Source: a virus
Length of the DNA stretch: 40,236 bases
IMG/VR virus record: IMGVR_UViG_3300037196_000123
Coordinates: 1 to 40,236 of that record
Strand: one strand, 5' to 3'
Shown: in pieces, positions 1 to 40,236 of the stretch
Layout of the letters: each line of letters starts with the position of its first letter
Numbering within the stretch: the stretch's first letter is position 1
Program-made: the position numbers and the translations under genes
The notes under the pieces: generated by a model
Seen by the model: only the letters and a program-made list of their open reading frames with translations
Databases searched by the model: none
Told to the model about the DNA's origin: nothing

Positions 1-127
1 TACACCTGAGCGTAGGAGGCCTGGTCGAGACGGTCAACCATCATCGGGAGTTTGGACTCTAGAACTCCGTAGATGTTGGATACCTCAACAATCTTGGGAT
101 CTCCCTTGTCGTTCACACCAAAGCGAG
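1..127. repeat. terminal overlap, identical to 40110-40236 (circular contig closure or terminal redundancy)
   Basis: Direct comparison of the first and last 127 nt of the window gives the identical string tacacctgagcgtaggagg...cgttcacaccaaagcgag. Confidence 0.95.
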
Positions 128-4282: not shown

Positions 4283-4494
4283 TACTCGGGATTGCAGGCC
4301 ACTGCCAGGTTCATGGCCATGACTGTCTCACGAAGATGGCGCATGGCTGCGGTCTTGTCTGCGCAGTCTGGAATAGCCGAATCAAAGAGCTCAGCGAACT
4401 CCTTGGCCGTTTTACGAAGGTCGTAGTAGATCATCAACTTTGTCGGAGTTGGAGCATGGTACGAGAACCAGTTGTCGATATCTTCCTGTTTCAT
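4282..4494 (-). CDS. small conserved phage protein with N-terminal WFxYHxP motif (possible helical-hairpin family)
   Basis: I place the start at the ATG at 4494, which gives an ATGA overlap with the upstream stop and has GGAG upstream. Sequence: MKQEDIDNWFSYHAPTPTKLMIYYDLRKTAKEFAELFDSAIPDCADKTAAMRHLRETVMAMNLAVACNPE. Confidence 0.65.
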   Translation of the reverse strand: MKQEDIDNWFSYHAPTPTKLMIYYDLRKTAKEFAELFDSAIPDCADKTAAMRHLRETVMAMNLAVACNPE

Positions 4495-5836: not shown

Positions 5837-6585
5837 ATTTGCTCCTCCAAACTTTCCAACATCTCTTTCATGATGCGTGCTGCTGTCGGACTACACAACA
5901 CATCAGAAGGATCATGAGCCGGACAGTACTGCCTATTCACATTGATGAGTCCCTCACACTTCCTTCTCACTTCGAAATAACCCTTTTCTCCTACACCATA
6001 AACCCCCCTCTTCGCTGTATCGTTGTCATACATGCAGTGAATCGTATTCACTCCCAGCATCTGAAGATAAGCAAGATGTCCTGCTCCGAAGTTGATGCTC
6101 AAAGTGCTAAGAACCGGAATGTTGGGATTAAGAAGTCGTGTTGCAATCAGGTCAAATGGTCCTTCTACCAAGAGCACCCAACCACACTCTATCACGTGCT
6201 CAATAACCCTTTTTGAGTTTCCGAACCACGTGGGTCCTACAAATTCGGACTTGTCTGTCAAACCCTTCAAGCAGTACCGATCTTCCTTCTTCGGTCCTCT
6301 TACCTGACATTTAACGGCCTTTCCTTTGAGATCGACTAACGGAAAGATGTAGTTAGGTCCCCAAGGTGTACTGTTCGGAGCATAGACGCAATGAAGATCA
6401 CCAAAGACTCGTTTCGCATTCTTCTCAATCAACGACCGGCTTGGTTCCCACCCACGGAACTTGATCATCATCTTCAAAGTGCTCTGCCACCACACCTTGT
6501 CAATGCTGGCGTAGTACGACTTCACCCCATTGAAGATGTCTCTACCATCCGTCCAATCAGCTGTATCTTGCTGTAATAAGCTCAT
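5833..6585 (-). CDS. DnaG-like primase (Toprim domain)
   Basis: Toprim motifs LLVEGPFDLIA (ExxxD... EGxxD type) and MYDNDTAKRG (DxD). I chose the ATG at 6585, which is preceded by AAGGAG. The track ORF extends to 6624. Confidence 0.7.
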   Translation of the reverse strand: MSLLQQDTADWTDGRDIFNGVKSYYASIDKVWWQSTLKMMIKFRGWEPSRSLIEKNAKRVFGDLHCVYAPNSTPWGPNYIFPLVDLKGKAVKCQVRGPKKEDRYCLKGLTDKSEFVGPTWFGNSKRVIEHVIECGWVLLVEGPFDLIATRLLNPNIPVLSTLSINFGAGHLAYLQMLGVNTIHCMYDNDTAKRGVYGVGEKGYFEVRRKCEGLINVNRQYCPAHDPSDVLCSPTAARIMKEMLESLEEQI

Positions 6586-7726
6586 GGAACTCCTTCTCAG
6601 TGATTGCCTGACCTTTGTTCTCAAACACTACACACGCGCAAGTTGGAAAAGTGGGATAATGACGACCATGACCATCTAGCCAGTCTTCACCTTTGGTGGT
6701 TCCTCTACCACGACAGATTTTACAATCAGGGTTGATGGTTTTGGTGGGCATTGGAGGACGAACCTTCACTCCGGATTCGATGTACTGACGAACCATCTCA
6801 GGAATGTATTTTGACAGAGTAGCACGATCAGCAATCTTCTTCTTCACCCAGAACTCGTCCTTGGTCATGGTCAGGTGATATATACACGCTTCATGAACCA
6901 AGCTCCCCGGAATATCTCCGAGTTCTTCTTCAAAGGTTAGAGGATCGAACTTCAACGGAGCGGAAGTCTTCGACGAAACCGGAGCGGAAACAACCCTGTT
7001 CGGATCGTACGGAGGAATGAACGGATTACCTCCACGACGTCTAACCGGAGAAGTAGAAACGGAAAGAGGGGATGCAAGGGTCTCCCTTGTCTCGGAAGAA
7101 ATCGAAGCGACGCTCTCTTCTCTTCTCTTCTCTTCTCTTTCTTCTTTATTCCGGACGCGATCGCTCGCATTACATTCCGATGGGTTTACATCCAATGATA
7201 GCGACTGACAGGGTAACTGACGAGCGACTGACGAGCGACTGATAGGTGGACTGACGAGCGACTGACGTGGTAACTGACTAGCGACTGACGGGGTGACTGA
7301 TAAGCGACTGATCTTTGCTTCATGCTTACGGTCATTTGATGCCGCAAAATGTGCCGGCTGCTTACCCATCAGGAACGTCTGATGATCAATTTCTTCATCC
7401 GGAATGCGGTCTTCGGAATCGATATCCTCCGTTGGGGATAGGTGAATCAACCCGAGTTGATACATCTTTTCTATTGCCCGTCCCACATACTTCCGGAAGT
7501 CAGGATCCAAGTTCATCTTGTTGGTCAGGAATCCTATATCGAGTCTGGGTTTCTTCCCACTTCTTCCTGCTTGACGTCTGAGGAAATCGTAGTAGTACCT
7601 CTGTTCTGGATGTAATTGAGTGTACTCAAAGTCGTCCTCTTTTTCAGTCCAATCGAAGACGTAATCTCTACGACCTTTGAGATCCTTCTGGTACTTCTTC
7701 CAGTTCTTGATTCCGATGTAAATCAT
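6557..7726 (-). CDS. replication initiator-like protein carrying the origin iterons inside its coding sequence
   Basis: 389-aa ORF between the helicase and primase genes. N-terminal winged-helix-like region. The central low-complexity segment is encoded by the iteron array and the polypurine tract. C-terminal Cys cluster CKICRGRG...CAC. Confidence 0.55.
   Translation of the reverse strand: MIYIGIKNWKKYQKDLKGRRDYVFDWTEKEDDFEYTQLHPEQRYYYDFLRRQAGRSGKKPRLDIGFLTNKMNLDPDFRKYVGRAIEKMYQLGLIHLSPTEDIDSEDRIPDEEIDHQTFLMGKQPAHFAASNDRKHEAKISRLSVTPSVASQLPRQSLVSPPISRSSVARQLPCQSLSLDVNPSECNASDRVRNKEEREEKRREESVASISSETRETLASPLSVSTSPVRRRGGNPFIPPYDPNRVVSAPVSSKTSAPLKFDPLTFEEELGDIPGSLVHEACIYHLTMTKDEFWVKKKIADRATLSKYIPEMVRQYIESGVKVRPPMPTKTINPDCKICRGRGTTKGEDWLDGHGRHYPTFPTCACVVFENKGQAITEKEFHELITARYS
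7113..7147. repeat. 35-nt homopyrimidine (plus strand) tract with (TCTTC)n repeats next to the iterons
   Basis: The sequence ctctcttctcttctcttctcttctctttcttcttt contains no purine. Confidence 0.85.
7201..7311. repeat. origin-like iteron array: 6 copies of GCGACTGA within about 23-bp units; 10 ACTGA cores at 11-12 bp spacing
   Basis: GCGACTGA at 7201, 7224, 7235, 7258, 7281 and 7304. Units read gcgactgacagggtaactgacga, gcgactgataggtggactgacga, gcgactgacgtggtaactgacta and gcgactgacggggtgactgataa. Confidence 0.8.
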
Positions 7727-9844: not shown

Positions 9845-9927
9845 GACTTCATCCTCCAGAGCAGCGATATGAAACACGCCTGTGCTGCCACAATTATCAG
9901 TCCAACTATCAAACCGATGATGATCAT
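9841..9927 (-). CDS. 28-aa hydrophobic micro-protein, first ORF of the leftward operon
   Basis: My translation is MIIIGLIVGLIIVAAQACFISLLWRMKS. AGGAG lies 6 nt upstream of the ATG. Its stop overlaps the next start (ATGA). It is below the ORF-track size cutoff. Confidence 0.45.
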   Translation of the reverse strand: MIIIGLIVGLIIVAAQACFISLLWRMKS

Positions 9928-10071
9928 TTTTGTCTCCTACACCCTGTGTTCGGTAGTCCGGAAACAGTTTTTCATTATGTTTCGCCTTTTGTTCGCCTAC
10001 TTAATAATTTCCTGTTTTCCATTAAACCAGCGTATCATCATTTCAGATCGTTAGTTAGATGCTTTCCGACT

Positions 10072-10100
10072 TTGCCATCCAAGGTGTAGAACACATTAAT
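10072..10100 (+). promoter_or_regulatory. sigma70-like promoter candidate for the rightward early cluster (TTGCCA-17-ATTAAT)
   Basis: The hexamers were read directly. They lie about 57 nt upstream of the ATG at 10157. The host is unknown, so this is tentative. Confidence 0.25.
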
Positions 10101-10156
10101 CGTTCTGCGCGGGCTGCGTTCGGCGAAGAGGCCACCGCATCAAAACAGGAGCAAAC

Positions 10157-10321
10157 ATGACAGAAACCGAGATCGACCTTCGCAACGGTGCTGAGCGTCT
10201 GGCCAAGAAGCAAGAGGTCCTGATCAAGATGGTGAAACGGATGGACGAATTCATCGCCGACACAATGGAACGGATCGCCCGTTTAGAGACCACGAACGAG
10301 GCCACGAATGCGCATAGTTGA
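10157..10321 (+). CDS. 54-aa coiled-coil protein
   Basis: My translation is MTETEIDLRNGAERLAKKQEVLIKMVKRMDEFIADTMERIARLETTNEATNAHS. AGGAG lies 5 nt upstream. It replaces the antisense ORF 10096..10341. Confidence 0.5.
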   Translation: MTETEIDLRNGAERLAKKQEVLIKMVKRMDEFIADTMERIARLETTNEATNAHS

Positions 10322-10793
10322 CATGCTCCGCTCCAAACCACGGATGCTCAGAGTTCCGGAAGTCGCGGAGCTCCTGGGCACCCCCGAAAATTCCTTCCAT
10401 GAAGTGCTAGGTTCAAAGAACCATCCTCCGTTCTATAAGATCTACGGATCGAAGAACAGACAAGGGATTCGGATAGATGCTGAGGACCTCGCGATCTACT
10501 TAGAAAGCGTCCTCATCGCGGCGGATGTACCGGAAGCGAAAGTAGACCTCGCGCCTCAGCCTATCCAGCAGCCGGATGTACCACCGGTCATTGAAGAATC
10601 GTCTGACGTCGATCTGAGCGTCGTGGTGGAGCCTCCGGTGCCTGTTTCCGCTGAACTCGAAGAGGAAGAAGTCGAAGATGACGATCCTGATGCAAAGTAT
10701 GCTGAGATGTCGATCATTGAACTCCGTGCTCTCACCAACGATCAGCTGGCGCTGGATGAGATCTTCCGTCGCAAACAGTTATTGAAGAGGTAG
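10308..10793 (+). CDS. excisionase/MerR-type HTH DNA-binding protein with an acidic linker
   Basis: The segment LRVPEVAELLGTPENSFHEVL...IRIDAEDLAIYLES is HTH_17-like. An alternative start is the ATG at 10323, just after the upstream stop. Confidence 0.6.
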   Translation: MRIVDMLRSKPRMLRVPEVAELLGTPENSFHEVLGSKNHPPFYKIYGSKNRQGIRIDAEDLAIYLESVLIAADVPEAKVDLAPQPIQQPDVPPVIEESSDVDLSVVVEPPVPVSAELEEEEVEDDDPDAKYAEMSIIELRALTNDQLALDEIFRRKQLLKR

Positions 10794-10797
10794 CGAG

Positions 10798-10878
10798 ATG
10801 AAAGTTCTAATGTGCGGCATGGCAATCGTGAGTATCGTGCTCTGGATCACTTTTACGCGGCTCAGGTATTGGGAATGA
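10798..10878 (+). CDS. 26-aa hydrophobic micro-protein (tentative)
   Basis: MKVLMCGMAIVSIVLWITFTRLRYWE, with GAGG 7 nt upstream. Confidence 0.3.
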   Translation: MKVLMCGMAIVSIVLWITFTRLRYWE

Positions 10879-10927
10879 TCGCACAGGGCACTTGTTCTGT
10901 AATCGTTGAACCTTTGTAGGAGACGAG

Positions 10928-11068
10928 ATGTACGACGTTTATGAAGAAAACCGTTTCCTCCGCAAACGGGTGTTCCAACTCCAGCTTCAACTGGGGATGA
11001 GGAGGAAGATCATGTTTGCTGCCCTGTTGGTGTCCCTCATATGGTTGTACCTGAGATGCAGACATTAA
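10928..11068 (+). CDS. 46-aa protein with a C-terminal transmembrane segment (tentative)
   Basis: MYDVYEENRFLRKRVFQLQLQLGMRRKIMFAALLVSLIWLYLRCRH, with AGGAG upstream. Confidence 0.4.
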   Translation: MYDVYEENRFLRKRVFQLQLQLGMRRKIMFAALLVSLIWLYLRCRH

Positions 11069-11100
11069 CCGTTTTGATTCCCATTTCGGTAGAGTATTCC

Positions 11101-11448
11101 ATGGTCTGGGTCAATGTCAAATCGAGCGCCATCAAGCAGATCGCATTCCGCAGCGGCCTGATATACATCCGCTGGATTGCTGACAAGCACCTGTTCTATC
11201 GTTATGGCCGGTTCACTCGCCAGCAGTATGACGACTTCCGGCACTCCAAGAGCCTGGGTGCGTTCTACCACTTATACATCGTGGGAACGGACTGGACCAA
11301 GGTTCGTCAGATGCAGGAGCAGCTTGCCCAGTTAGTCTTGGAACTGGATCCTGACTATGGCAAGATGTTGACAGCATTTACATCAGTGAACCCTATGGCT
11401 CTGAGGGACTGGATCGGTGAACCGGAATTGGAACTAGCTCTTCGGTGA
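11101..11448 (+). CDS. KTSC domain protein
   Basis: The segment SSAIKQIAFRSGLIYIRW...FYRYGRFTRQQYDDFRHSKSLGAFYHLYI matches the KTSC pattern (S..I..I.Y...L.V.F..G..Y.Y..V....Y......S.G.Y....I). I chose the Met at 11101. The track ORF starts at 11041. Confidence 0.65.
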   Translation: MVWVNVKSSAIKQIAFRSGLIYIRWIADKHLFYRYGRFTRQQYDDFRHSKSLGAFYHLYIVGTDWTKVRQMQEQLAQLVLELDPDYGKMLTAFTSVNPMALRDWIGEPELELALR

Positions 11449-18714: not shown

Positions 18715-18858
18715 CTTGGTTCTCCTGTCGAGTTCATGATAACTTGTTACAATTACCCGTTTTGCTTGCTTCACCCGTAGAGTAAAGAGTGAGGTGTGAA
18801 ATGTGGTTCATCGTAGGACTCTTCGTAGCATGGTGCATCAAATACTGCTGGGAATAGC

Positions 18859-27700: not shown

Positions 27701-29849
27701 GGGAACCCGGACCTGCCGATTGAAGCACTACACGAAGACCTGTTTCGGGACCATTTTGAGTTATACCATTCGGTGACGCCGCGATTGGATAAGTGTACTG
27801 ACCTGTTGCTGTACCTGTGGCGGTGCCCGAACCAGTTGCACCGCCATAAGCAACCTCGAACTGACTCGACAACAATCCCGACCCAAGCACGTTATAACCC
27901 GCCGCGCCATTCAAGTATGTGGGACCTGTCAGTATGTTGATGATAACCACTTCGCCCGCAGTGAACGTATTTGCTGCAGTGAGAGTTACAATCCCACCAG
28001 ATGTGGTATAACTGGTTATGGTTGCAATACCTCCTGCTGCGAGAGTCCCAGCGAACGCGGGAGGAGCACCAGGTCCTACCTGGCTGACCCTGTCATGCCA
28101 AGTGCCGTTGTAACCCTGAGGAGGGTAATTTCCTTGCTGCAGGTCGGAAATGGCAATGAACTGACGGCTATCAGCAGTGAACGACGATGCATAGCTATCG
28201 TCAGGAATCCCGCTGAACAGAGGAGTCAGTAGTCCAGGTGCTGAGTTGATATTCTCCACCCAGAAATTGCCATCGGCATCAAGAGCCAGAGTTCTGATGG
28301 TGGAAAAGTTGTCTTCGAACGTGGTAATGTAGTTGAAGTTGACCAAAGATGGCAAAAAGAAGGCTTCAAAAGTTACATATCCAATAGCCAGAACTGCAGC
28401 TCCGCTGCTCACAGCTGTGATCCGCACACCAAAATCGATGCTGTTAAGATCGGCATATGTCCACGTAGTACCAAAAAGATCGTTGATGCCTCCATAAGTG
28501 AACGTGGCAGGAGTTCCACTGAAGCTGGATGTTATTGCTACTCCCACCGGAACTCCTGCTTTTAACATCTGAATAGTGAATGTCGCAGCATCTGTGGCAT
28601 AGTTCAGAACAGTGAGCTTGAGTCCTTGCGGAGTAGATGTGCTGGGGAGAGACAGCCCAAAGTGAGTGATATCCAGAGCATCTGTAGTCAGTACCGATAT
28701 GGAGTAATACACCGTTACAACCAGTGTGTTCACGGACACTACTGTCGTGGCTGTGGATGATGTAAAGAAACTAACTTGCAAGGCTGCAAGAGTGGCTTCA
28801 GACCATGACGAATATCCCCACAGAGATGTGGACCCTCCGGATGTGTATACCGCTGGAGCAGTTGTCAAAGTGAAAAAGGGATCAACATTACCAACATTCA
28901 AACCCACCTGAAATGAAGGAGCAACGCCAGTATAATCGGCATTGAACGAGATTCCTATTCCAGTGATCACCCCAGCCGATGGAATTGTCAATCCGGCAAT
29001 GGCAGCCTGTAGAGTTTGAGCGGATAATTGGCCTGTCCCGATTACGGTTGCATACCAGCTGCTCACCGCTCCACCCACGTTCGCGTACCCGAACGGGCTA
29101 CATCCAGCAGTCGCAACAAGCTGAATCTGCACTGTCGATAGATTCGAAAATCCTCCAATCGAAATAGGGACATTTCCCACATACGAGGAGGTCCATTGCC
29201 CAGCTTGCTCCCAGTATGACCCACCATCGACCGAATAGTTAAGAACAACCGATCCGCCACCCTCAGTGGCAGCAATGGTCACATCGATTGTGACATACAA
29301 GGTGGCTAAAGTGGTAACAATCGATGCAAGACCTGTCAAAGTTGTGTGCGTCGTAGGAGGCGTTGGATTAGACGGGGTGGCAAAATTGTAAACACTGCCA
29401 GAATTTCCGTAGTATTTCTCTGGGCCACCGGGAGCTAGAGACACGCTCGCAAACGCAACAGTTGAGTCAATGTTTGCTGGATTTGACCAGGGTGCTCCAC
29501 CTCCAGTGTTCGATCCAGTCGATGCAGACGATACTTCTGTCCCACTGGTTGCGATTGTAGATGTAGCGTACACTCCAGTATTCAGAAGAGCATTACCTGG
29601 ATTTACCCACTCGATATTGCCCAAGGAGGTATCGACTGCTGATCCTCCAGGTGTAGGTCCGACATAGTTTCCAGAGTATGTAAACGGGTTCTGCAACCCC
29701 TGCCGAGTGAAGGCAGATCCCACGTCGTAGTCCATATTTTGCGTGCGTGGACTTCCACCTTCTGGCAGATTTTGAGGCTGCGCCAGAGTTATAGTACCCC
29801 CAAAGGTCTCGAGGTGAGCGGATTGCCTGCCGAGCAAATTATGTGCCAT
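24783..29849 (-). CDS. giant virion protein (1688 aa), probable tail hub/nozzle-fibre protein
   Basis: Largest ORF in the window. Thr/Ser/Gly/Val-rich beta composition. It sits where podoviruses encode tail tubular/nozzle proteins. Confidence 0.55.
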   Translation of the reverse strand: MAHNLLGRQSAHLETFGGTITLAQPQNLPEGGSPRTQNMDYDVGSAFTRQGLQNPFTYSGNYVGPTPGGSAVDTSLGNIEWVNPGNALLNTGVYATSTIATSGTEVSSASTGSNTGGGAPWSNPANIDSTVAFASVSLAPGGPEKYYGNSGSVYNFATPSNPTPPTTHTTLTGLASIVTTLATLYVTIDVTIAATEGGGSVVLNYSVDGGSYWEQAGQWTSSYVGNVPISIGGFSNLSTVQIQLVATAGCSPFGYANVGGAVSSWYATVIGTGQLSAQTLQAAIAGLTIPSAGVITGIGISFNADYTGVAPSFQVGLNVGNVDPFFTLTTAPAVYTSGGSTSLWGYSSWSEATLAALQVSFFTSSTATTVVSVNTLVVTVYYSISVLTTDALDITHFGLSLPSTSTPQGLKLTVLNYATDAATFTIQMLKAGVPVGVAITSSFSGTPATFTYGGINDLFGTTWTYADLNSIDFGVRITAVSSGAAVLAIGYVTFEAFFLPSLVNFNYITTFEDNFSTIRTLALDADGNFWVENINSAPGLLTPLFSGIPDDSYASSFTADSRQFIAISDLQQGNYPPQGYNGTWHDRVSQVGPGAPPAFAGTLAAGGIATITSYTTSGGIVTLTAANTFTAGEVVIINILTGPTYLNGAAGYNVLGSGLLSSQFEVAYGGATGSGTATGTATGQYTYPIAASPNGITQNGPETGLRVVLQSAGPGSQDAGSVVTVYYSLTMEDPALVQLFQQQLFPVYVYVSGTDIAAANGTFQITNIGQGYPPNAGTQAWYFTYNVTQSATTQAGFGLGTNGQYQLTVATVTATLPLPGVQIGDQVSLSGNVGGWDETWSIVNALNSGSFSVSETSITAGVATYNLSYTGFTSVPPAAGQLITVTGCLNPAAQFNIADASIASVSWLGGSGTVTVTIAPSNITAATPVVEPQGAQATTSGTVFQIDPGPLLVNSNSGTPIYGNSGGGFITLVGSTSIIVGTGTRRGVVFFITRNGFYTAPSPYFQFSVIEFTNYILASGIPVGPADVIARGIAFTEAGQNGIPGASYYTIPTPVSFTVAGVTYLSSSLFINDNVTTTAKFTFPDTVLLEAEEIDIQGNDLFNLQELGDAAWCTQYAGRSVWGRVNNKIGNFINLSFDGGYLPNPGSNILPLGWGLDSSNLSSSLPTLLESPVFGNSYYIKNLSGSDQTTLGMITQSAFQDQNGVAILNNSTTYSVRVTCRTPGSSTIGALVIDLTTYNAGSGYGQTYGSFTLNTSAMASNMVTYTGTLLTSDTLTIPSSLVLRVWAQNLANNGDIEIDRIEVFPTLNPVNLTGLTFSYLNDWESFDDVTGGNDTSTVNSQPTNGAFVIHDQLYIVKESSLGYLSDSPSQEPANWNPFREVSNVAGACGINAYDVGEEWAIMAGQNGLFAFNGGAPVQIQLEIPDIWQAINWPSAQGLVVRNDVVDRKIFVACPMTTPNQWMPDFPPVTNPNYNNVILMLNYDGIGTIEQLISSEPLHVTLMGKTVSNDLRRKWSPWSIPTPYIGHVKRSELFSELMFCNGIQSSKIYELGDYQTGLDDGTPFKSSYCTYGAVSTEKEKENPTFGMHNKQAVYYDGIVTGSPETGPVNQNQANGIVQMSFFQNTLTAPSPYVVPGGLDLTDPNNDIEGPLDEYAQRLFVELSVLGGWFRLSRMTIVMQQAPWSPLRGK

Positions 29850-29888
29850 GCTACCCGATCTCCGAACTCAGTCCGTAGAAGAAATCAT

Positions 29889-29946
29889 GACGCGGCACGA
29901 CTAGACGTGACGCCACCCGACATGACTAGGCGCGACTCAACAAGAC
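29889..29946 (-). promoter_or_regulatory. array B: 12 phased GTCNN pentamers on the sense strand
   Basis: Reads GTCTT GTTGA GTCGC GCCTA GTCAT GTCGG GTGGC GTCAC GTCTA GTCGT GCCGC GTC from 29946 down to 29889. Confidence 0.9.
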
Positions 29947-29950
29947 AAGA

Positions 29951-29986
29951 AGGAGAGCCTGAAGGATCGCTCCGACAGGCTCTCCT
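29951..29986 (-). terminator. intrinsic-terminator-like hairpin after the 127-aa gene
   Basis: AGGAGAGCCUG - 14 nt - CAGGCUCUCCU (11 bp), followed by UCUUGUCUUGUUG. Confidence 0.55.
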
Positions 29987-29988
29987 AA

Positions 29989-30372
29989 TCAGTCCTTGAC
30001 CCAGATTGCCTCGAACTTGATGACGTCCGCCAACACACCAGCCGGCAACGCGCCATTGGGCAGTTCGGCGAAAGGACCATTGGCAGCCGAAGATTCAAGG
30101 ATCTGGATCTTTCCGGACGCAGCGTTCCACTGATAGACATAGCCACTTCCTGCAACAGAAGTGAACACGATGTCATCGGGCTGGACGTTGAGAGTCGGAA
30201 TCAGGACCGCTGCACCAGATGCATCCGAGTACGGAGGAACATTTGGTAGGACCCCGCCTGCAGCATAGGTTCCTGCTCCCCATGCCAACTTGCCCCGCAG
30301 CCACATCCGAGACATGGTCTGGTCGATGCCGTAGGGTGCATTAAAAACGGTTAAAACTGCACTGATAGCCAT
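29989..30372 (-). CDS. small beta-rich virion-associated protein (127 aa)
   Basis: The ATG at 30372 is preceded by GGAG. The track ORF starts further upstream at 30492. Confidence 0.5.
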   Translation of the reverse strand: MAISAVLTVFNAPYGIDQTMSRMWLRGKLAWGAGTYAAGGVLPNVPPYSDASGAAVLIPTLNVQPDDIVFTSVAGSGYVYQWNAASGKIQILESSAANGPFAELPNGALPAGVLADVIKFEAIWVKD

Positions 30373-30445
30373 TATGCTATCTCCTTCTGACGGACAATCT
30401 CGAGCCGTCTCTTTTGTGAATTGCGGATCTTGGTCACTGGTCTCA

Positions 30446-31306
30446 TCAGTAGAGAGTCCTTGAATTCTGGTTACCACCAGCACCCGATCCATAGATCGGC
30501 ATGGTGTATGAAATATGCTGGCGATCCCGCGTTATTTGCTTTCTCAACTTCAGTAGTGCCTTGGCTGCATCCATAACAGCCGTTTGGTACGCCGTGCCTC
30601 CCAAGCGACTTGCGTACATTTGGCTGATCTTGGTTGCAACGCATTCTTGACAATCCATGACCGGAACCATCGTCGTTGACCAATCAACTGTGCTTACGTT
30701 ATCCGGGTCCGCATCTGTGTTGGGAGACGGAAGCAAGTCTTGGTACACTATGAAGTATCTTAGCCTAACATCCATCGGCTGCGTTGCGCCGTTGCACCAC
30801 AGACCATCAGTCCTCCACTCCCACTTACCAAGTGAGTTCGAAGACTGCTGTGTGGGACAGAGAGCTCCGGTAGACTGCTTGACTTCTGAGAAACTCATGC
30901 TGGAATTTCCAGAAGGTCTCTGCCAGAGTGAGATTGGCTGCAAGAGAGTGGAAGGAAGTGGAAAGTTTGGCCACATCATCAATCCGTCGAAGTATCCTCC
31001 GAACTGGAAGGAAACTTGGGCAGCCGGATTGATCACTCCTACTCCTAGAGCAGAGTTTACCGGAGGAACTGAAAACAGAATGTAGTTGTCTCCGATCAAG
31101 GTTGGCTGGCCCATGATTCGGACATCACGCCACATATCTCTGATCGCTGAGTTGAGGAAGTTCTGGAGAGTAACGGATGTGTTAGTCAGGATCTGACCTT
31201 CACCTGGTGTGCCAGTGGCTCCCTTTTTGTCGTCGTTGCACATACTACGTGCCAGGTTCGCAATGACAGCGAGCGAAGGGTAGTTTTGGGAGGGTCCAAC
31301 TGCCAT
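30446..31306 (-). CDS. virion structural protein (286 aa), adaptor/connector-like by position
   Basis: GAGGTGA SD. Call rests on position downstream of the capsid block. Confidence 0.5.
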   Translation of the reverse strand: MAVGPSQNYPSLAVIANLARSMCNDDKKGATGTPGEGQILTNTSVTLQNFLNSAIRDMWRDVRIMGQPTLIGDNYILFSVPPVNSALGVGVINPAAQVSFQFGGYFDGLMMWPNFPLPSTLLQPISLWQRPSGNSSMSFSEVKQSTGALCPTQQSSNSLGKWEWRTDGLWCNGATQPMDVRLRYFIVYQDLLPSPNTDADPDNVSTVDWSTTMVPVMDCQECVATKISQMYASRLGGTAYQTAVMDAAKALLKLRKQITRDRQHISYTMPIYGSGAGGNQNSRTLY

Positions 31307-31418
31307 TACATCACCTCAAAATTGACATCCAGGGGCGTCTCTGTAGCATCCTGAATCGGGGAGACCATCCCGTCTCTAGCAGGCCGAGTAATTCTGCTGA
31401 TCGGCCCCTGGAAGATTG

Positions 31419-32291
31419 TTAAGCCAGAACTTCTTCTGGCTTGACATTTGGAGGACGTCCACCAGGATTCTTGAACCGATCCGGGAAGAGTTTCCTCGCC
31501 TTTGTTTCGTCCAGCACCGCCGAGCAGAACCTGCAAACAGCGGCTGCCGGATTGACCATTTCTGCACAGTTGGGACATTCGATCTTCCCAACATTGTCGA
31601 GCTTGGGAACCAGAGCAAGTCCGTTCCAGGAAGTGGATTGGTTGAAATAGCTGGCAGCCATGTAGCTGATCTTGTTTGCACGCGCCTTGGCCGCGTTCAC
31701 CCCATCTACCCCAGCTTCGATGCGAGACATTTCCTTGAGTTCTTCCCGATAAGTGGTCTCTAGACGAGCCTTGGCCGCCTTGACTTCTTCAAGGAGAGGA
31801 GGATTGTGTGTGGACCAGAAGACGCCAAACTTGTTGAGATTCGCACCGACCATGAATTGGTTTGGATCGTCAAAGTTCTGAACAGCGATAGGATGACTTG
31901 GATGGTCGACAGGTACATCAGGATCAGCCACTCCATTGTTCATCGGATTCAACATCTTGGTGGCCTCGATGTAACCATCCGTGTACTCGCACTTCTTCTT
32001 CCCGTTGACAGTGTCGAAACTGAACTCGGGAAACGGATGCTGCAAGTTTCCCGTCAGGATATAGTCCTTGTCAGCCGGGCATGCCTTGATATAGATGTGC
32101 GGATGATTCGGAGGACGACTCACTCCATCATCCTTGCCCCAGGCCATGGGGCTGACATTGAAGATGTAGATTGCGGTGGATGCTGGGCGGAATCGACGAT
32201 CTCTCTGAGGGATAAACTCGTTGGGAAGAATTTGGTTGTTCATAGCAGCTTGACGCTGCGCAGCGACTTCGGGTACTTCTTCATAAGGCAT
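31419..32291 (-). CDS. virion structural protein (290 aa) with a C-terminal zinc ribbon
   Basis: AGGAG SD. C-terminal CPNCAEMVNPAAAVCRFCSAVL (CxxC-10-CxxC). Confidence 0.5.
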   Translation of the reverse strand: MPYEEVPEVAAQRQAAMNNQILPNEFIPQRDRRFRPASTAIYIFNVSPMAWGKDDGVSRPPNHPHIYIKACPADKDYILTGNLQHPFPEFSFDTVNGKKKCEYTDGYIEATKMLNPMNNGVADPDVPVDHPSHPIAVQNFDDPNQFMVGANLNKFGVFWSTHNPPLLEEVKAAKARLETTYREELKEMSRIEAGVDGVNAAKARANKISYMAASYFNQSTSWNGLALVPKLDNVGKIECPNCAEMVNPAAAVCRFCSAVLDETKARKLFPDRFKNPGGRPPNVKPEEVLA

Positions 32292-32304
32292 GATTGTTGG
32301 TCTC

Positions 32305-33042
32305 CTAGGTTCCCAAACGCTGCTGCGTCTGGAAGAATTTATTTCTCGACATCATGGCAACCAGTGAGGCATTAAATGCTCTCTCCTGAGCTCTCACTTT
32401 GTCTTCCAGCCATGACGTAGAAGATAAAGTTTCCTTGCGCTTTGCGTCTTTCCAGGCATCTTCGTAGACCTTGCAACGATCGTCTTCCGCCTTGGCTTCC
32501 TCATCCTTGAAGAATTTCATCTTAGCTTCAGTCGTGAGGATCATTGAACCTTTGATGATCGGAATCATCATATTGACAATCTCGGTTGACAGTGGGAAGG
32601 CCTCAATAAACATCTGAGGAACTCCCTTGGCATCCTTGATGACTAGCTTGGCCACCAGACTGAGCACCGTCTGATAGGATCCGTGATACGGATACTCACC
32701 CAGGATCTGTAATCCTGTCTTGGGGCAGCGATTCTCTGCATAGAAGGATACATCCGATTGAGACGGAAGATGAGGCATCTCAGCAGACTTACCAGCATCC
32801 ACCCACATCATCAACATCCAGTGAGGGTTGCCATCTCCTTTGAGGACATCACGGTATCCTACATGTGCTTCGCCCATCACTTCCCATTCGCCACCTTGAC
32901 GCATGATCTCAGTCTGGGCCCAAGCAATCTTGAAGTTGGGCTGACCATAGCGATTCAGTCCACCGGCAAGGGTGATTCTGTTCTGGAAATGCTGTGGGCA
33001 GTGTAGACGCTCGGGTTGAGGAAGCTCGGAGGTTATCTGCAT
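32305..33042 (-). CDS. hypothetical structural-module protein (245 aa)
   Basis: GGGAGG SD. Co-oriented and tightly packed. Confidence 0.5.
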   Translation of the reverse strand: MQITSELPQPERLHCPQHFQNRITLAGGLNRYGQPNFKIAWAQTEIMRQGGEWEVMGEAHVGYRDVLKGDGNPHWMLMMWVDAGKSAEMPHLPSQSDVSFYAENRCPKTGLQILGEYPYHGSYQTVLSLVAKLVIKDAKGVPQMFIEAFPLSTEIVNMMIPIIKGSMILTTEAKMKFFKDEEAKAEDDRCKVYEDAWKDAKRKETLSSTSWLEDKVRAQERAFNASLVAMMSRNKFFQTQQRLGT

Positions 33043-33230
33043 TCAGCCTCCCTCTTTCTCCTCAATTTCTGAGATTCCCTCATTTTGGATAGAATTTCAG
33101 GAGAAGGAGAAGGAAATTTTCTGCCAAGGTTTGGACCTTTGCAACCCAGCTTCTTCAAACGAATTCTTTCTTTTGTTTCCTGAGAATGAACGTAACCCTT
33201 ATGAAGAGGGTGCTCTCGGCAATTGTTCAT
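33033..33230 (-). CDS. stand-alone NUMOD3-repeat DNA-binding protein (65 aa)
   Basis: KGYVHSQETKERIRLKKLG and GRKFPSPSPEILSKMRES resemble tandem NUMOD3 motifs (G..HS.ETK.KIS). The ATG at 33230 forms an ATGA overlap with the upstream stop. Confidence 0.5.
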   Translation of the reverse strand: MNNCREHPLHKGYVHSQETKERIRLKKLGCKGPNLGRKFPSPSPEILSKMRESQKLRRKREAECR

Positions 33231-33733
33231 GGCTTCTCTACTGCAAAGTGACAAGATTCCACCAACTTAATGTCCCATACACTACAAAGGGTGAAAATCT
33301 CGTCACCAACCTTGATGTCTTCCGTGTTGAAAGCTCCGAAAACGACTAAATCTCCCACCTTAACCTGGTCACTCATAGGGAAACTCTTTCCTTCCCATAT
33401 GAATGTGGCCGCTGTAGCTACAACCACACCGCGATTTGGCGACTGCTGAGCAGACTCCGGTATGACAAATCGAGTGCCACCATAGACAGTCTCTTTTGCC
33501 ATTCGTCTAATCAAAACATGATTGAATATCGGCAACGGATCGTCGTACACTCTTTCAACCGTCTGAATTTTCCTACCGGAGTAAAGGCTCTCCAGTTCGT
33601 CCTTGGTGAACTCTGCCGGAGTGATGGCTTCAACAGCCTGATTTTCGGCCGCAGGATCTCCTGGAGCTTGCTGAGTTTCCTTGATTTTCCGACGGTCAAC
33701 AATTTCAAAGGGTCCGTTCTTACTGGTTGACAT
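33227..33733 (-). CDS. GroES/Cpn10-like co-chaperonin with a roughly 70-aa N-terminal extension
   Basis: The ATG at 33733 is preceded by AAGGAG. The C-terminal roughly 95 aa aligns by eye with GroES: FNHVLIRR..E....GG..IPESAQQSPNRGVVVA........VKVGDLVVF......I. Confidence 0.65.
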   Translation of the reverse strand: MSTSKNGPFEIVDRRKIKETQQAPGDPAAENQAVEAITPAEFTKDELESLYSGRKIQTVERVYDDPLPIFNHVLIRRMAKETVYGGTRFVIPESAQQSPNRGVVVATAATFIWEGKSFPMSDQVKVGDLVVFGAFNTEDIKVGDEIFTLCSVWDIKLVESCHFAVEKP

Positions 33734-33786
33734 TATGGTCTCCTTGATTACCCGTTCTGTGTTTCTGTTCGGTAGAAAGCTATCTC

Positions 33787-33844
33787 GACCAGACATGACT
33801 GCACCAGTCAGGACGTGGCAAGACGTGACTCGACTAGACCCGAC
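33787..33844 (-). promoter_or_regulatory. array A: 12 phased GTCNN pentamers on the sense strand
   Basis: Reads GTCGG GTCTA GTCGA GTCAC GTCTT GCCAC GTCCT GACTG GTGCA GTCAT GTCTG GTC from 33844 down to 33787. Confidence 0.9.
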
Positions 33845-33851
33845 AAGGGAA

Positions 33852-33878
33852 AAGGGTCAGGTGATAAGCCTGACCCTT
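33852..33878 (-). terminator. intrinsic terminator after the major capsid gene
   Basis: AAGGGUCAGG - CUUAUCA - CCUGACCCUU (10 bp), followed by UUCCCUUGU. It starts 8 nt after the capsid stop codon. Confidence 0.6.
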
Positions 33879-33885
33879 CTCACAG

Positions 33886-35229
33886 TTAGATGGTGGGCTG
33901 AGACGCACCGTACACGAAGAGCTGGTGCTTAGGTGCGCTGCAGGCGAGGTTGAACGCTGCCTCATAGGCGAACTGGAATGCAGTCAACCAATCGTTGCTG
34001 GTACCAGGAACAGGGATGGAAGTCACGCCATCTCCGTACTGGTACAGCTGGAGAGGAATGAGCTCTCCAAGGTACCACTCATTCGTCAGGAGGAGGTCCA
34101 AGCGACCAGAAGGCTGAGCGTAGGAGAGGTGAGATTCGCGGCCACCGAAGGTACCCTGGAAATACTTGCGAGAAGTATCCGGAGTCTTCTTGTTGCCACC
34201 ACCACCCTCGTCAGAATTCTGGGTGATCTGCTTGTTGTAGTAGTTCGTGGTGCCGATGGCGACCGCCTGGTCCTCAGGAATGATGTAGATACCCGAGTCC
34301 TTGCTCTTGTTGTCTCCGCCCATCGCACGACCAAGCAATGCCTCGACGCGCAGTGAGAGAGAAGCTGTAATCGATCCACCGTTCAGGTTGATCGAAGGAG
34401 CAGTCACGCGGTTCGGATAGTCAGCGCGGTTGACACCAGCGATGGTACCAGTCGTGGAAGAGCTATTCCAGGCAGTGGTTCCGAAGACGCCCTGGTTGAG
34501 TGCGCCTGTGGATCCGGCAATCATGATGTAGTCGCCAACTGCAGTTGCGCCACCCAAGGAGGGTAGGGCAGTGCTGAAGAACACCGTGCTCGAGGCCGGA
34601 TCGGTCACAGAAACAGTCGCATTGCCACGACTGGATCCGCCTTCCGAGGGGAAGATCTGAACGATCTGGTTGTCGGTCAGGGCCATTGCGCGGATGCCAG
34701 TGATGTAGCTGGTGGCGTTACCCGAACCAGAACCGCTGGAAACCGTCGCGCCGGTGGGAATCTGGGTGATTGCACCCGAGCTATCCCCGTACATGATGCC
34801 CTCGAGGCCAGCCATTGCGGAGTCAAGAGAGTTCTTGAGCTCTTCGGCCTTCAGAGAGATGAGACCTCTCTTCTTATTGCCGGTGGCCGCCTGAGCGATG
34901 CGGGTCTGTTGGTTCGTGGCGTAGTGATACACAGGAGACAGAACGAAGTCAGCCCACTGCGATGCGTTACCAGATCCAAGGGAGTCACCGTTGCCAGTTC
35001 CCTGACCAATCGCGGATCCACCCTGGACACGGAACGGTACACGGAAAGAAGGCCGCGTGGTTCCTGATACCGAAGTACCAGCAAGAGTTGTGTGAGAAAT
35101 AGGAATGCTCGTAAAGCGATCCTTCGCCAACGAGAACAGAGTCGAACTCTGTGGAATAAGAGAGGGAATGGAGGTCGCGAACGATTCAAGTTCAACGGCC
35201 TGTACAGCAGATTCTGCGCCGACTGCCAT
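33886..35229 (-). CDS. major capsid protein
   Basis: 447-aa ORF directly after the scaffold region and followed by a strong terminator. GGGAGA SD. Call rests on size and position. I cannot verify the fold. Confidence 0.7.
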   Translation of the reverse strand: MAVGAESAVQAVELESFATSIPSLIPQSSTLFSLAKDRFTSIPISHTTLAGTSVSGTTRPSFRVPFRVQGGSAIGQGTGNGDSLGSGNASQWADFVLSPVYHYATNQQTRIAQAATGNKKRGLISLKAEELKNSLDSAMAGLEGIMYGDSSGAITQIPTGATVSSGSGSGNATSYITGIRAMALTDNQIVQIFPSEGGSSRGNATVSVTDPASSTVFFSTALPSLGGATAVGDYIMIAGSTGALNQGVFGTTAWNSSSTTGTIAGVNRADYPNRVTAPSINLNGGSITASLSLRVEALLGRAMGGDNKSKDSGIYIIPEDQAVAIGTTNYYNKQITQNSDEGGGGNKKTPDTSRKYFQGTFGGRESHLSYAQPSGRLDLLLTNEWYLGELIPLQLYQYGDGVTSIPVPGTSNDWLTAFQFAYEAAFNLACSAPKHQLFVYGASQPTI

Positions 35230-35352
35230 GGTGTGATTCTCCCGGAGCTAAACGAGCCTCGTGTGAACGTGTGTAAATGGGTCTCAACGTCACATCTACA
35301 ACAGGAGAACATTTTCAGTGGCAATTCAGGACTCTGCTACCAGTAATGTTGA

Positions 35353-35493
35353 CTAATTAAGTCTCACTGGAGGTTTTGCACCCTCAGAACTGTTTCCTTG
35401 AATGTTCTTCAGCAACAACTTCTTACCTTTTCTAATTACTAGCTTATCACCCTTTTTCGATTTTGAATAGTTGTACCCTTCTTCTTTCAACAT
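35353..35493 (-). CDS. 46-aa basic micro-protein (tentative)
   Basis: MLKEEGYNYSKSKKGDKLVIRKGKKLLLKNIQGNSSEGAKPPVRLN. Weak SD. Its ATG lies inside the 3' strand of an 8-bp stem. Confidence 0.25.
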   Translation of the reverse strand: MLKEEGYNYSKSKKGDKLVIRKGKKLLLKNIQGNSSEGAKPPVRLN

Positions 35494-35544
35494 CGATAGT
35501 TGTCTCGTAAAGTTTGCACGAACGAAAATTGAAATGGATGTTGA

Positions 35545-35617
35545 CGCTCTACCAGCTGAGCTACATGATTTTCATCATGACGGGACTCGAACCCGTGACC
35601 TTCTGTACCCAGACAGA
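35545..35617 (-). ncRNA. circularly permuted tRNA-shaped element: anticodon-arm-like hairpin, variable loop, T-arm, GAAA-capped acceptor stem, D-arm
   Basis: Minus strand reads UCUGU CUGGGU ACAGA AGGUC ACGGG UUCGAGU CCCGU CAUGAU GAAA AUCAUG UA GCUC AGCUGGUA GAGC G. Canonical U8, A14, G15-C48, G18G19, G26-A44, G53-C61 and T54-A58 equivalents are all present. No encoded CCA and no free acceptor end. Confidence 0.7.
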
Positions 35618-35653
35618 TAACCCACTTCTAGCGGCTCGTGCTTCCATTCAATA

Positions 35654-36040
35654 CTACTGAGTTCCCTTACGTTCCACCATTCTGCTGGTAGGTTCCGTGA
35701 ATCCGACATCCGGAGAATTAAGGAAATCCACTTTCTCCTTTATTGTACCAGGCCAGCGAACCTGCGGATTAGAGAACCAAACTTTGTTGGGATCCCAAGT
35801 GATAAATCTGCCACTCTTGAGATAACCTTGTCCTCTGATAAGCATAAGATCTGCTTTATGATAGTGAAAATCCAGTTCACTATCGAGAGGACGACGATGA
35901 AACCACTGCAGATAAAGTTCTCTGATTAGACCTCTAAGTTTCGGAGGTTTGACCCTCTGGTTCTGACGATCCCAGTACTCGTCATACGAAATGGTTTTAT
36001 CCAAGTTGTTTCTTCTTCCACTTGCATTTTGTTTGAACAT
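35654..36040 (-). CDS. hypothetical head-module protein sharing a C-terminal motif with the scaffold protein
   Basis: AAGGAG SD. LDSELDFHYHKADLMLIRGQGYLKSGRFITW compares with EDSAIDWTRPRAEIMFIEGRGYLKGSGRYVQW in the scaffold protein. Confidence 0.6.
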   Translation of the reverse strand: MFKQNASGRRNNLDKTISYDEYWDRQNQRVKPPKLRGLIRELYLQWFHRRPLDSELDFHYHKADLMLIRGQGYLKSGRFITWDPNKVWFSNPQVRWPGTIKEKVDFLNSPDVGFTEPTSRMVERKGTQ

Positions 36041-38351: not shown

Positions 38352-40236
38352 TACAGCTTCCTAGTAGTTCTCGTCTTGATTTCAGCCATCGGATTTCTCC
38401 TGATGGTTTCTTGAGTTTGTTCACTCGGTTCAGGCTTGGGAGGAGATACCTGAATCCCAGCCATACCCAAGAGTTCCGAGATGGTATTCGGATCCAACTT
38501 GCCGCTGAGACTGACCTTCGGGGCAGCTGGAACAGGTTTGGCGAACTTTTCAGCAAGCTCCTTGTTTGCCTTCCAATAGAGCAAAATGTTTGTAAACTTG
38601 GCCCAATTCTGCTTCATCTTAGGATCGGGATTGTTGCCATCTTCTTTTGCCGCAGCTCTGCGAATCTTCCTGAATTCGGGTTTCTGCATGAAGCTGAACA
38701 AAGTAGCAGTGATGGTGGCATAGTCGACACTCTGGTCATCTGGAACTTCTACTGAAGGAAGATACTGAGGAGTCCCATCCAGCTGCTTCTTGACCTCACC
38801 AACTTTTTGCTCCAGTTGCTGACCTTGCTCGGTATCTTCCGGATGAAGTCTTCCCTCTTGAGCAGCCTGAGTTGCCAGCTGCTTGGCCTGTTCATGAACC
38901 TCGCTCATTTCCCGATACTGGCGGTTCAATTCGTGCCACTGTGGATTTTCAAGAGGCTCGGACTCTAGAAGGATTTCAACAGTCTCCATGGCTCCATCTT
39001 CCGAATCAGCTTCATCAACCGTGATGACGTCATCCATGTGCAGCCCATTGATGATCTCACGAGCATTGCTCGGAGTTCCCACGATGGACTGAATCTGTTG
39101 ACTCGAATTTGCCATTTCGAGGATCTGCAATATCTTGGCTTCACGTTGGGCACCCGACTCTGGGATTCCATTAATCGTCTCCGCCTTGCACTTGAAGTTA
39201 CCCTTGAGATTCTCAGGATTGACAGTGATATCACCATATTCCGAAGAGTTGCTGGAGATCTCCGTATTTCCGTTGTCTGCACAGCATCTGACGGCCTGTG
39301 AGCACGCTTCGGCAAACATCTTGTTGGATACTAGCCATGCAGTTCCGATGCGCTCCAAAGCCTGCTGAAGACGGATCTGTGTTGCACCAACCGTGTTGTC
39401 TGCTCCTTCACCGCCTCCAAACAACGCTGGTGTTCCTCCGTCAATGGACTGGATGAGTGGTCCTAGATACCACTGCAGCATTTCACTGAATCCCGGAATC
39501 GGTTGAGGAGTGGGAGTCTGTCCCACGATGGATTGCATCGTCTGCTGGTTCGCTGTATCGAGTGCTACTTCAACGAATCTTGTAGTGCTGGCTTCTAGCT
39601 TCGACATTGCCTCAGCATCGAATGCTTCCGACTCCAGCAGTCCGATCGGAATAGATCCTCTGACATACTTGTCCCAAAGATCCGCCCAGATGTTGATCCT
39701 CTTCTGAATCGGGATATCAGACGATCCAAGAGCGCGGCGATCCTGTCCAAATCCTCTAGAGTACATTCCCATAGACAAGTGGTCGTCCATTGATTCCGTC
39801 CAGCAACAGACGAATTCAGGTCCAGCCATGACAATGAAGATGCCCTTTGAGAACTCTTTGAGGAAGAACTCACGCTGACTTGCCTTCACCTTATCGTCGT
39901 AGAAGATACCAACACGATACCAGGTGTAACCCATAGTGCATTCACGGACACCTGCTGTACCTGTAATGTAACGACCCATCATACCAAGGCGAGTGTTGAT
40001 ACGAGCAATACGCTCAAACTCCAGTTCACCCGCTGTGCCCCACGACGGCTTGATCTTGTTACCCATCCACGGATATGCTGCACGTGCGATGGCATAGTCA
40101 ACTTCTTCGTACACCTGAGCGTAGGAGGCCTGGTCGAGACGGTCAACCATCATCGGGAGTTTGGACTCTAGAACTCCGTAGATGTTGGATACCTCAACAA
40201 TCTTGGGATCTCCCTTGTCGTTCACACCAAAGCGAG
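38351..40236 (-). CDS. portal protein, C-terminal part (continues from 755..1 through the junction)
   Basis: The 624-aa track ORF begins at a GTG that is an internal Val codon of the longer frame. See the feature at 1..755. Confidence 0.7.
   Translation of the reverse strand, partial: RFGVNDKGDPKIVEVSNIYGVLESKLPMMVDRLDQASYAQVYEEVDYAIARAAYPWMGNKIKPSWGTAGELEFERIARINTRLGMMGRYITGTAGVRECTMGYTWYRVGIFYDDKVKASQREFFLKEFSKGIFIVMAGPEFVCCWTESMDDHLSMGMYSRGFGQDRRALGSSDIPIQKRINIWADLWDKYVRGSIPIGLLESEAFDAEAMSKLEASTTRFVEVALDTANQQTMQSIVGQTPTPQPIPGFSEMLQWYLGPLIQSIDGGTPALFGGGEGADNTVGATQIRLQQALERIGTAWLVSNKMFAEACSQAVRCCADNGNTEISSNSSEYGDITVNPENLKGNFKCKAETINGIPESGAQREAKILQILEMANSSQQIQSIVGTPSNAREIINGLHMDDVITVDEADSEDGAMETVEILLESEPLENPQWHELNRQYREMSEVHEQAKQLATQAAQEGRLHPEDTEQGQQLEQKVGEVKKQLDGTPQYLPSVEVPDDQSVDYATITATLFSFMQKPEFRKIRRAAAKEDGNNPDPKMKQNWAKFTNILLYWKANKELAEKFAKPVPAAPKVSLSGKLDPNTISELLGMAGIQVSPPKPEPSEQTQETIRRNPMAEIKTRTTRKL
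40110..40236. repeat. terminal overlap, identical to 1-127
   Basis: Direct comparison. Confidence 0.95.

Follow-up and report, generated by a model that had tools for sequence, protein, structure and literature searches.

The viral genome considered here (IMG/VR record IMGVR_UViG_3300037196_000123, positions 1 to 40,236; the whole of this 40,236-nt stretch is called the window below) has nearly all of its genes on the - strand, and among its late genes stand two short intergenic elements, A and B, each with a run of 12 pentamers, in which a triplet is kept and a dinucleotide varies, next to a hairpin. We lean slightly towards the view, put together from sequence comparisons, that A and B are two solitary genes for guide RNAs resembling the vrRNAs of VIPR systems, in a genome that lacks vipr, and that their products would load onto Vipr from elsewhere.

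Element B precedes the gene for a protein of 1688 aa. Its array (29889-29946; assigned provisionally to the + strand, with GTC on the - strand) consists of 12 in-phase pentamers without a gap in the register, the + strand units being GACGC GGCAC GACTA GACGT GACGC CACCC GACAT GACTA GGCGC GACTC AACAA GAC(AA). Read on the - strand as (GTCNN)12, it has G as the first base of every triplet and an exact GTC in 8 of the 12. The hairpin at 29951-29986, which could form on either strand, has an 11-bp stem (AGGAGAGCCTG, 29951-29961, with CAGGCTCTCCT, 29976-29986) and a 14-nt loop, and is the dominant helix in the folds predicted for the + strand (z -4.2) and for the - strand (z -2.6). On the + strand it lies 3' of the array after AAGA; on the - strand it lies between the stop codon of the upstream gene (29989-29991) and a T-rich run, and the array is then followed by GAT (29886-29884), the box TTCTACGGA (29880-29872) and the ATG (29849) of the 1688-aa gene. 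The hairpin, array, GAT, box and ATG had been picked out in an initial annotation made from the letters alone, and all are present.

Element A, located after the gene for a 447-aa capsid-like protein, shares the layout of element B (12 units, flanking hairpin, downstream box), again as the initial annotation had it. The array (33787-33844; + strand as provisionally assigned, 9/12 triplets being GTC on the - strand) has the + strand units GACCA GACAT GACTG CACCA GTCAG GACGT GGCAA GACGT GACTC GACTA GACCC GAC(AA). Its hairpin (33854-33876, within a feature span of 33852-33878; possible on either strand) pairs GGGTCAGG with CCTGACCC, is extendable to 10 bp, has a 7-nt loop and, on the + strand, lies 3' of the array after AAGGGAA. 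On the - strand, TTCTACCGA is found at 33777-33769, and the true ATG of the next gene, which is Cpn10-like, at 33733. On the + strand, both arrays finish with a GAC-AAG end, a purine- or A-rich linker and then a stable hairpin, the hairpin sequences differing between A and B; on the - strand, it is GAT...TTCTACSGA that is conserved 3' of both arrays. The hairpins had been described as terminator-like: they are certainly there, but a simple terminator scan calls neither of them.

VIPR systems, which were described in 2026 starting from the protein Vipr, comprise this small RAMP protein, an accessory protein (Vap) and the vrRNAs, which are about 100 nt long and contain 9-16 pentamers, each with a conserved GGY 'or a related consensus' and a hypervariable dinucleotide (NN), followed by a structured tail; the dinucleotides pair with double-stranded DNA, one base being skipped per unit, and competing phages are silenced (bioRxiv 10.64898/2026.04.26.720920; 10.64898/2026.04.26.720927). 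Natural targets were taken to be those agreeing at 80% or more of the NN positions with the 1-nt skip. According to the companion structural paper, one Vipr protomer (a fold with an RRM core, a G-loop and a thumb) binds each repeat, and position 3 of the triplet sits in a purine-excluding pocket (same preprints). Beside GGY (YNNGG), the alternative consensuses NNNGG, YNNNG and NNNNG are published; neither a GAY nor a GUC consensus appears in the published text, figure S17 aside. Since discovery began with the protein, guide-like arrays in genomes without Vipr would have been invisible to it.

A phase scan that covered the + and - strands of the window found only two arrays scoring at least 5/12, namely A (9/12) and B (8/12), the best scores in 200 mononucleotide shuffles of the window being 3-5/12. 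A scan for 5-nt periodicity that is indifferent to the triplet likewise picked out A and B alone in the window, and no site in any of 13 relatives from IMG/VR (62-75% identity in the 447-aa protein; a fourteenth and closest relative is 95% identical). As a positive control, the same scan recovered from Escherichia phage SUSP1, whose VIPR system is of type II (bioRxiv 10.64898/2026.04.26.720920; 10.64898/2026.04.26.720927), the four published vrRNAs and nothing else, all on the strand that carries vipr and vap, with scores of 25-29 against 27 for A and for B. When A and B are aligned with each other, 29/36 triplet positions are identical, and 7/24 dinucleotide positions, which is chance level; because the NN positions are thus unrelated, the copies are not recently duplicated from each other. 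The initial annotation had said as much, and had added that kept triplets with free dinucleotides would suit selection on a periodic recognition code; a protein reading such a code would give this pattern, as Vipr does with one RAMP protomer per pentamer. Over the 24 units on the + strand, position 3 is C in all, position 1 is G in 21 and position 2 is A in 20, positions 4 and 5 admitting all four bases; the triplet is GAC in 17/24, the variants being GGC (three times), CAC (twice), AAC and GTC. On the - strand the first base is G in all 24 units.

In other viruses, arrays of this type lie next to genes for Vipr homologues. When IMG/VR was scanned for exact runs of five GTCNN units in succession, at least 119 loci were obtained, plain microsatellites included, and among the matches listed there are 23 loci having GTCNN arrays with variable NN (8-39 units; many loci have several arrays, nearly always on the same strand). 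Clustering of the neighbouring open reading frames (ORFs) brought out, at 11 loci, a protein about 190-300 aa long whose C-terminal loop is rich in glycine, and a hidden Markov model (HMM) extended it to 17 of these 23, the Vipr homologue being within a few kilobases of the arrays. The family matches only phrog_4652 (function unknown) and no Pfam family. Compared with it by HHalign, the Vipr of SUSP1 gave a probability of 97.4% (E 1.4e-11), and the sole significant match in PDB to a profile of five of the array-adjacent proteins was 'SUSP1 Vipr protein' (36pp; E 1.9e-6). On the strength of these profile matches, we take the GTCNN arrays of the Vipr-linked viral contigs to be VIPR arrays with a different middle base.

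Two classes can be distinguished. In 13 loci (L027, L040/L099, L051, L059, L073, L075, L083, L087, L106, L118, L121 and L122) vipr is opposite to the GTC strand, so that RNA of operon sense would read GAC/NN; the arrays of these loci, of 9-39 units (median 15), lie within a few kilobases of vipr, usually in clusters of 2-14, and in L073 and L051 they are followed by terminators in the GAC/NN direction. In L031, L096 and L110 (the GUY class), the arrays read GTC/GTT in operon sense, and in L031 a terminator comes after them. The commonest variant in each class has T in place of C as the third base of the sense triplet (GAT and GTT, respectively), in agreement with the pyrimidine pocket of Vipr. 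The 3' end seen in A and B on the + strand (GAC-AAG, A-rich linker, hairpin) recurs in the Vipr-linked loci L121, L087, L106 and L073, and also in the array-bearing locus L125, in the examined sequence of which no vipr was found. Many GAC/NN arrays are interleaved with genes around a Vipr homologue in L118 and L094 (which are on one contig, IMGVR_UViG_3300037070_005035), L040/L099, L073 and L082, one such phage having at least 14 arrays of 7-39 units over about 9 kb. Blocks of 10-15 units separated by joints of 4-9 nt (GGCA, TCGR, AACGCT) occur in L031 (11291-11511), L096 (6560-7230) and L110 (2070-2610), and are probably the 'staggered' architecture of the VIPR paper, but with a GUY triplet.

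In the lineage of the window the arrays are accessory and recently gained. In the 13 IMG/VR relatives, the genes follow the same order all the way from terminase to those past the 1688-aa protein, and the search of related genomes that had been suggested in the initial annotation found neither A nor B in any of the 14 relatives (by the GTC scan and/or the generic periodicity scan). At site B, the intergenic gap is 3-12 nt in relatives with a readable junction (12 nt in the relative with 95% identity), so element B, at about 125 nt including the hairpin, is an insertion in this lineage. After the capsid-like gene, relatives without an extra inserted gene have a hairpin and then directly CAAGGAGACC-ATG, with no array. 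The only further contigs with these arrays are 100% identical, and no copies with variant NN were found among them. The junction occupied by element A contains, in three of the relatives (L002, L005 and L009), an extra ORF (MNNFYVYQYLR...GKGxGxRAW) about 150-400 nt downstream of the capsid-like match; it looks like a GIY-YIG homing endonuclease, and on this comparison the junction seems to be an insertion hot spot.

The window has no recognisable vipr. With an HMM of ten Vipr homologues, hmmsearch --max over all six-frame ORFs of the window gave a best E of 1.2; an 11-sequence profile (the same ten with the Vipr of SUSP1) compared by HHalign with all six-frame ORFs of at least 90 aa gave a best probability of 3.3%; and Pfam and PHROGs scans of the 38 window proteins yielded no match to the Vipr family phrog_4652 and no other candidate. 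Profile methods do have reach here, as PSI-BLAST from a single query sufficed to gather the published Vipr set (bioRxiv 10.64898/2026.04.26.720920; 10.64898/2026.04.26.720927). A search for vap was also negative, no window ORF falling into BLASTP clusters with the Vap-like neighbours of Vipr in the IMG/VR loci. Array-less relatives have conserved counterparts of the small proteins encoded between and around the arrays, and the remaining small proteins of the window are helix-turn-helix (HTH)-, KTSC-, Toprim- or membrane-like, or without assignment; at the level of sequence, a vipr gene in the window was rejected on all these grounds. Moreover, the phage genome is closed and complete, at about 40.1 kb. 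Its 127-bp identical ends (window 1-127 = 40110-40236) represent the overlap of a circular assembly and not a physical terminal repeat, because an 837-aa gene that crosses the window ends is continuous in the public record JGI 3300036911 Ga0334875_000127, a rotated reverse complement of the window. RNAs made from a complete genome without a recognisable vipr would have to load onto the Vipr of another element. A scan of genome collections for Vipr of the GAC clade gave only three matches, too few to be informative on Acidobacteriota, the likely host phylum; none of the three was acidobacterial. Self-targets and targets in the relatives, sought with skips of 0-3, were at chance level, as were those sought for 75 further arrays across 1.4 Mb of viral loci; one 16/18 match, of a guide from L083 to capsid-module relatives, did not extend.

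How might such RNAs be transcribed? A G-N-C triplet looks the same from either strand apart from its middle base, so this base and the context are the only guides to the strand. We think it somewhat the more probable case that the RNA comes from the + strand and reads GAC/NN: the invariant C at position 3 and the presence among the variants of GGC, which is the canonical GGY form, both point this way, and the spectrum of deviant triplets fits the GAC class over the GUY class by 3.1-4.5 nats (a fragile figure, the GUY class comprising only 99 units). The statement of the initial annotation that both copies are in the sense orientation of the operon is right as far as GTC goes, yet the strand that functions may well be the other. 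A bipartite motif, TAMCCG-N17-GTAGAR, is also relevant. It has four copies in the window, all on the + strand and with identical spacing, compared with a mean of 0.09 in shuffles. Two of them (TACCCG-N17-GTAGAA) stand before the arrays, at 29852-29880 for B and 33749-33777 for A, with GTAGAA ending 8 and 9 nt, respectively, before the first GAC. Another, at 18754-18782 (TACCCG-N17-GTAGAG), is 19 nt upstream of an 18-codon ORF, and the last, at 11066-11094 (TAACCG-N17-GTAGAG), comes 6 nt before the start codon (ATG, 11101) of a KTSC-domain gene. The TTCTACSGA box that the initial annotation had regarded as part of the array elements is the complement of the right half of this motif, and the supposed tie to the arrays has to be given up, two of the four copies having no array and lying upstream of + strand ORFs.

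Provisionally, the motif is predicted to be a promoter for antisense RNAs of about 100 nt ending at the hairpin. So read, it would place transcription starts on the + strand at the initial GAC in A and in B, and also where the + strand ORFs begin; measured from promoter-like motif to hairpin, the predicted units span about 96 nt (A) and about 102 nt (B). In the - strand orientation, its -10-like half would adjoin the ATG of the 1688-aa gene, where it could not work as a promoter. A search for other cassettes combining the same box with an array gave five chance matches only. The 18-codon ORF (18802-18858, + strand), which runs antisense to the late operon, has GAGG as its ribosome-binding site and a hydrophobic translation (MWFIVGLFVAWCIKYCWE), and may encode a small membrane peptide. 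In the KTSC gene, an ATG only 6 nt past the motif amounts to leaderless geometry.

On the reading that we prefer, then, each element would give a vrRNA-like RNA from the + strand, antisense to the late genes and of the form (GAC-NN)12, starting at or next to the first GAC. Its transcription would be driven by TACCCG-N17-GTAGAA, the -10-like half of which is the box of the initial annotation, and its end at the hairpin would give a length of about 100 nt. Each conserved triplet would be gripped by a protomer of a Vipr-family RAMP protein, in alternation with a free dinucleotide which, as in VIPR systems, would pair with double-stranded target DNA, one target base being skipped per unit. The Vipr, which for A and B would need to belong to a GAC-reading clade, might be supplied in trans by a resident prophage, by a VIPR system of the host or by a co-infecting phage, and would be either redirected by pirated guides or soaked up by decoys. 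The sequences themselves show the periodic anatomy, the linkage of such arrays to Vipr homologues in other viruses, the recent insertion and the lack of vipr; transcription, its strand, binding by Vipr, the supply of Vipr in trans and any biological effect are predictions. That solitary vrRNA mimics of this sort act on a foreign VIPR system, as an anti-VIPR decoy titrating 12 protomers per RNA or as pirated guides silencing a competitor, is a tentative suggestion, which we hold to be rather less than evenly balanced.

Several points weigh against this reading. The triplet is GAC (or GUC) and not GGY, which calls for a different Vipr clade, and the SUSP1 system does not tolerate a change from GGY to GAY (bioRxiv 10.64898/2026.04.26.720920; 10.64898/2026.04.26.720927). 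A and B are more degenerate than the Vipr-linked arrays (71% versus 88% consensus triplets), and their existence as discrete small RNAs, from either strand, is a prediction. Their 3' parts have no invariant tail, the hairpin sequences being different; neither hairpin has a U-tract 3' of it on the + strand, and the box could serve as a conserved 3' tail on the - strand. In 16-17 of the 17 Vipr-linked loci, the arrays are co-directional with the neighbouring genes, which in the window would favour the - strand. Being a loose inverted repeat as well, the bipartite motif might be an operator instead of a promoter, and a sigma-70 scan calls nothing at any of its copies. A very divergent vipr in the window is possible, RAMPs being hard to detect by sequence. 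Finally, a search for targets of A and B with the 1-nt skip in the window, its relatives and the 1.4 Mb of fetched viral loci gave at best 17-18/24, the level of shuffled guides, while exact matching of the central 8 units in IMG/VR found chance sites only, and of units 1-10 in JGI metagenomes no match.

Some of these points would be met if the repeats functioned on the other strand, as GUC/NN vrRNA-like units on the late-operon transcript that are cut out of, or bound on, the polycistronic mRNA, with GAU...UUCUACSGA as their 3' tail. The late operon is necessarily transcribed through both arrays, the stretch just 3' of the array is then the very part that is conserved between A and B, and the invariant G at the first base would be on the functional strand; nearly all Vipr-linked arrays point with their flanking genes, and GUY/NN arrays that are co-directional with vipr-vap and followed by a terminator do exist (L031, L096 and L110). 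In this orientation, however, two units become GUG, with a purine where the Vipr pocket takes pyrimidines, the array would come directly behind a terminator-like hairpin, and the box and its partner half recur at two sites without an array; the arrays of the GUY class, with 4-nt separators and GTCAA/GTCAG ends, are unlike A and B, and the deviant triplets fit the GAC class better. We regard vrRNA-like function on this strand as unlikely, although its probability is well short of negligible.

The initial annotation had pointed to something different, a leader controlling the downstream genes in cis; on such a model the late mRNA would be bound, in the manner of TRAP, by a ring-forming or polymerizing RNA-binding protein of the phage or host that controls termination or translation. 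The position of the arrays, between a hairpin and the ribosome-binding site of the next gene, would suit such a role, and 12 triplets with 2-nt spacers do resemble the TRAP sites of Bacillus trp leaders, in which 11 (G/U)AG triplets with 2-3-nt spacers are bound by an 11-mer ring. Against this, the 14 relatives have the same genes in the same order and no array, even the one at 95% identity, the gap at site B being just 3-12 nt, so an essential late-gene leader is unlikely; Pfam and PHROGs scans listed no match to TRAP or HutP (families not searched by name), and elsewhere the same type of array is linked to Vipr RAMP genes. A leader of this kind now seems very improbable. We give even less credence to an element acting at the level of DNA, such as a set of T7-type primase sites (5'-GTC-3') or of iterons or centromere-like protein-binding sites. 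It is true that GTC is the recognition triplet of T7 primase, that every GTC triplet of A and B counted here lies on the same strand and that the genes of the phage include those for a Toprim primase-like protein and for a DnaB-like helicase; yet GTC is common elsewhere in the window (629 on the - strand and 600 on the + strand), and its frequency on both strands, the array-free relatives and the linkage to Vipr elsewhere led us to reject primase hot spots. At a period of only 5 bp, typical repressor dimers could not sit side by side on double-stranded DNA, and origin iterons were rejected since an iteron block that looks far more like an origin lies elsewhere in the genome, at 7193-7311.

This block consists of about 10 iterons of 11-12 nt (TCAGTCGCTNG) on the - strand, inside a 389-aa ORF (6557-7726) that is immediately downstream of the DnaB-like helicase gene, and it is followed by a purine-only, (GA)n-like run at about 7113-7150; it resembles an origin of replication of the lambda O type, embedded in the initiator gene. 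Other recognizable genes encode the small terminase and the large terminase (1742-4282, - strand), which is interrupted by an intein (Pfam Intein_splicing and Hint_2) and which in some relatives is uninterrupted, at about 480 aa. Just upstream of the large terminase gene, a 70-aa gene (4282-4494, - strand) has a precomputed Pfam hit to Acb2_Tad1_hairpin, a family of anti-CBASS and anti-Thoeris sponge proteins. The gene with a Cpn10/GroES domain (33227-33733, - strand) directly follows the gene for the 447-aa major-capsid-like protein and is kept in all relatives examined. A small counter-transcribed module (9869-11448, + strand) encodes HTH_17-like proteins and the KTSC-domain protein (11101-11448). 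Most of the remaining genes have no family in the Pfam and PHROGs scans, and Rfam and tRNA scans of the window found no known RNA family and no tRNA. At the DNA level, 29000-36000 has no match to deposited phages; homologues of the 447-aa capsid-like protein are found in metagenome-assembled genomes named Terracidiphilus, Pseudacidobacterium and Acidobacteriota, a sign that the host may be acidobacterial.

If A and B are real vrRNA-like genes, VIPR guide scaffolds circulate independently of the effector, GAC/NN scaffolds moving between phages as cassettes of about 125 bp made up of promoter, array and hairpin. The conserved triplet would not be limited to GGY, GAC and GUY versions lying beside Vipr homologues in many uncultivated viruses, and counter-measures or piracy in a VIPR arms race would become directly testable. 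There is also a warning for annotation, in that the strand-symmetric G-N-C triplet leaves the transcribed strand ambiguous from sequence alone. The kind of array is known from the 2026 preprints; what A and B add is a genome without the protein, copies that are scattered and (on the preferred strand) antisense, and a triplet other than GGY.

It remains to set A and B beside the systems that they resemble. Like the vrRNAs of VIPR systems, they are phage-borne and intergenic, with tandem pentamers in one register (12 units, against the published 9-16), a conserved triplet with hypervariable NN, some degenerate internal units and a predicted unit of about 100 nt. They differ in having GAC/GUC where SUSP1 has GGY (and rejects GAY), in apparently lacking the invariant pseudoknotted tail and in having no target in the searches made; and, in contrast to VIPR systems as described, they are scattered in a late structural operon rather than flanking vipr, in a phage genome without vipr or vap. 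The closest likeness is to the Vipr-linked GAC/NN arrays, with which they share the triplet, its deviants (GGC, CAC and AAC), the 'GAC-AA-GAC-AAG' end and an A-rich linker and hairpin as in L121 and L073, although the window has just two 12-unit singletons, without vipr and, if GAC is the sense triplet, antisense to their neighbours. TRAP sites are similar in their period of about 5 nt, in having 11-12 triplets and in the use of one protein subunit per triplet; but the TRAP leader is conserved in cis, whereas these arrays are not conserved among relatives, and their spacers are strictly of 2 nt and carry variable information. Solitary CRISPR repeat units in phages are said to use or jam host Cas proteins, and A and B, if our reading is right, would be the VIPR counterpart of such virus-borne mini-CRISPR arrays and RNA anti-CRISPRs. 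VIPR is not CRISPR, and piracy or decoy action by vrRNAs is suggested here by the absence of vipr; what the two have in common is a virus that carries the guide part without the effector, implying action in trans.

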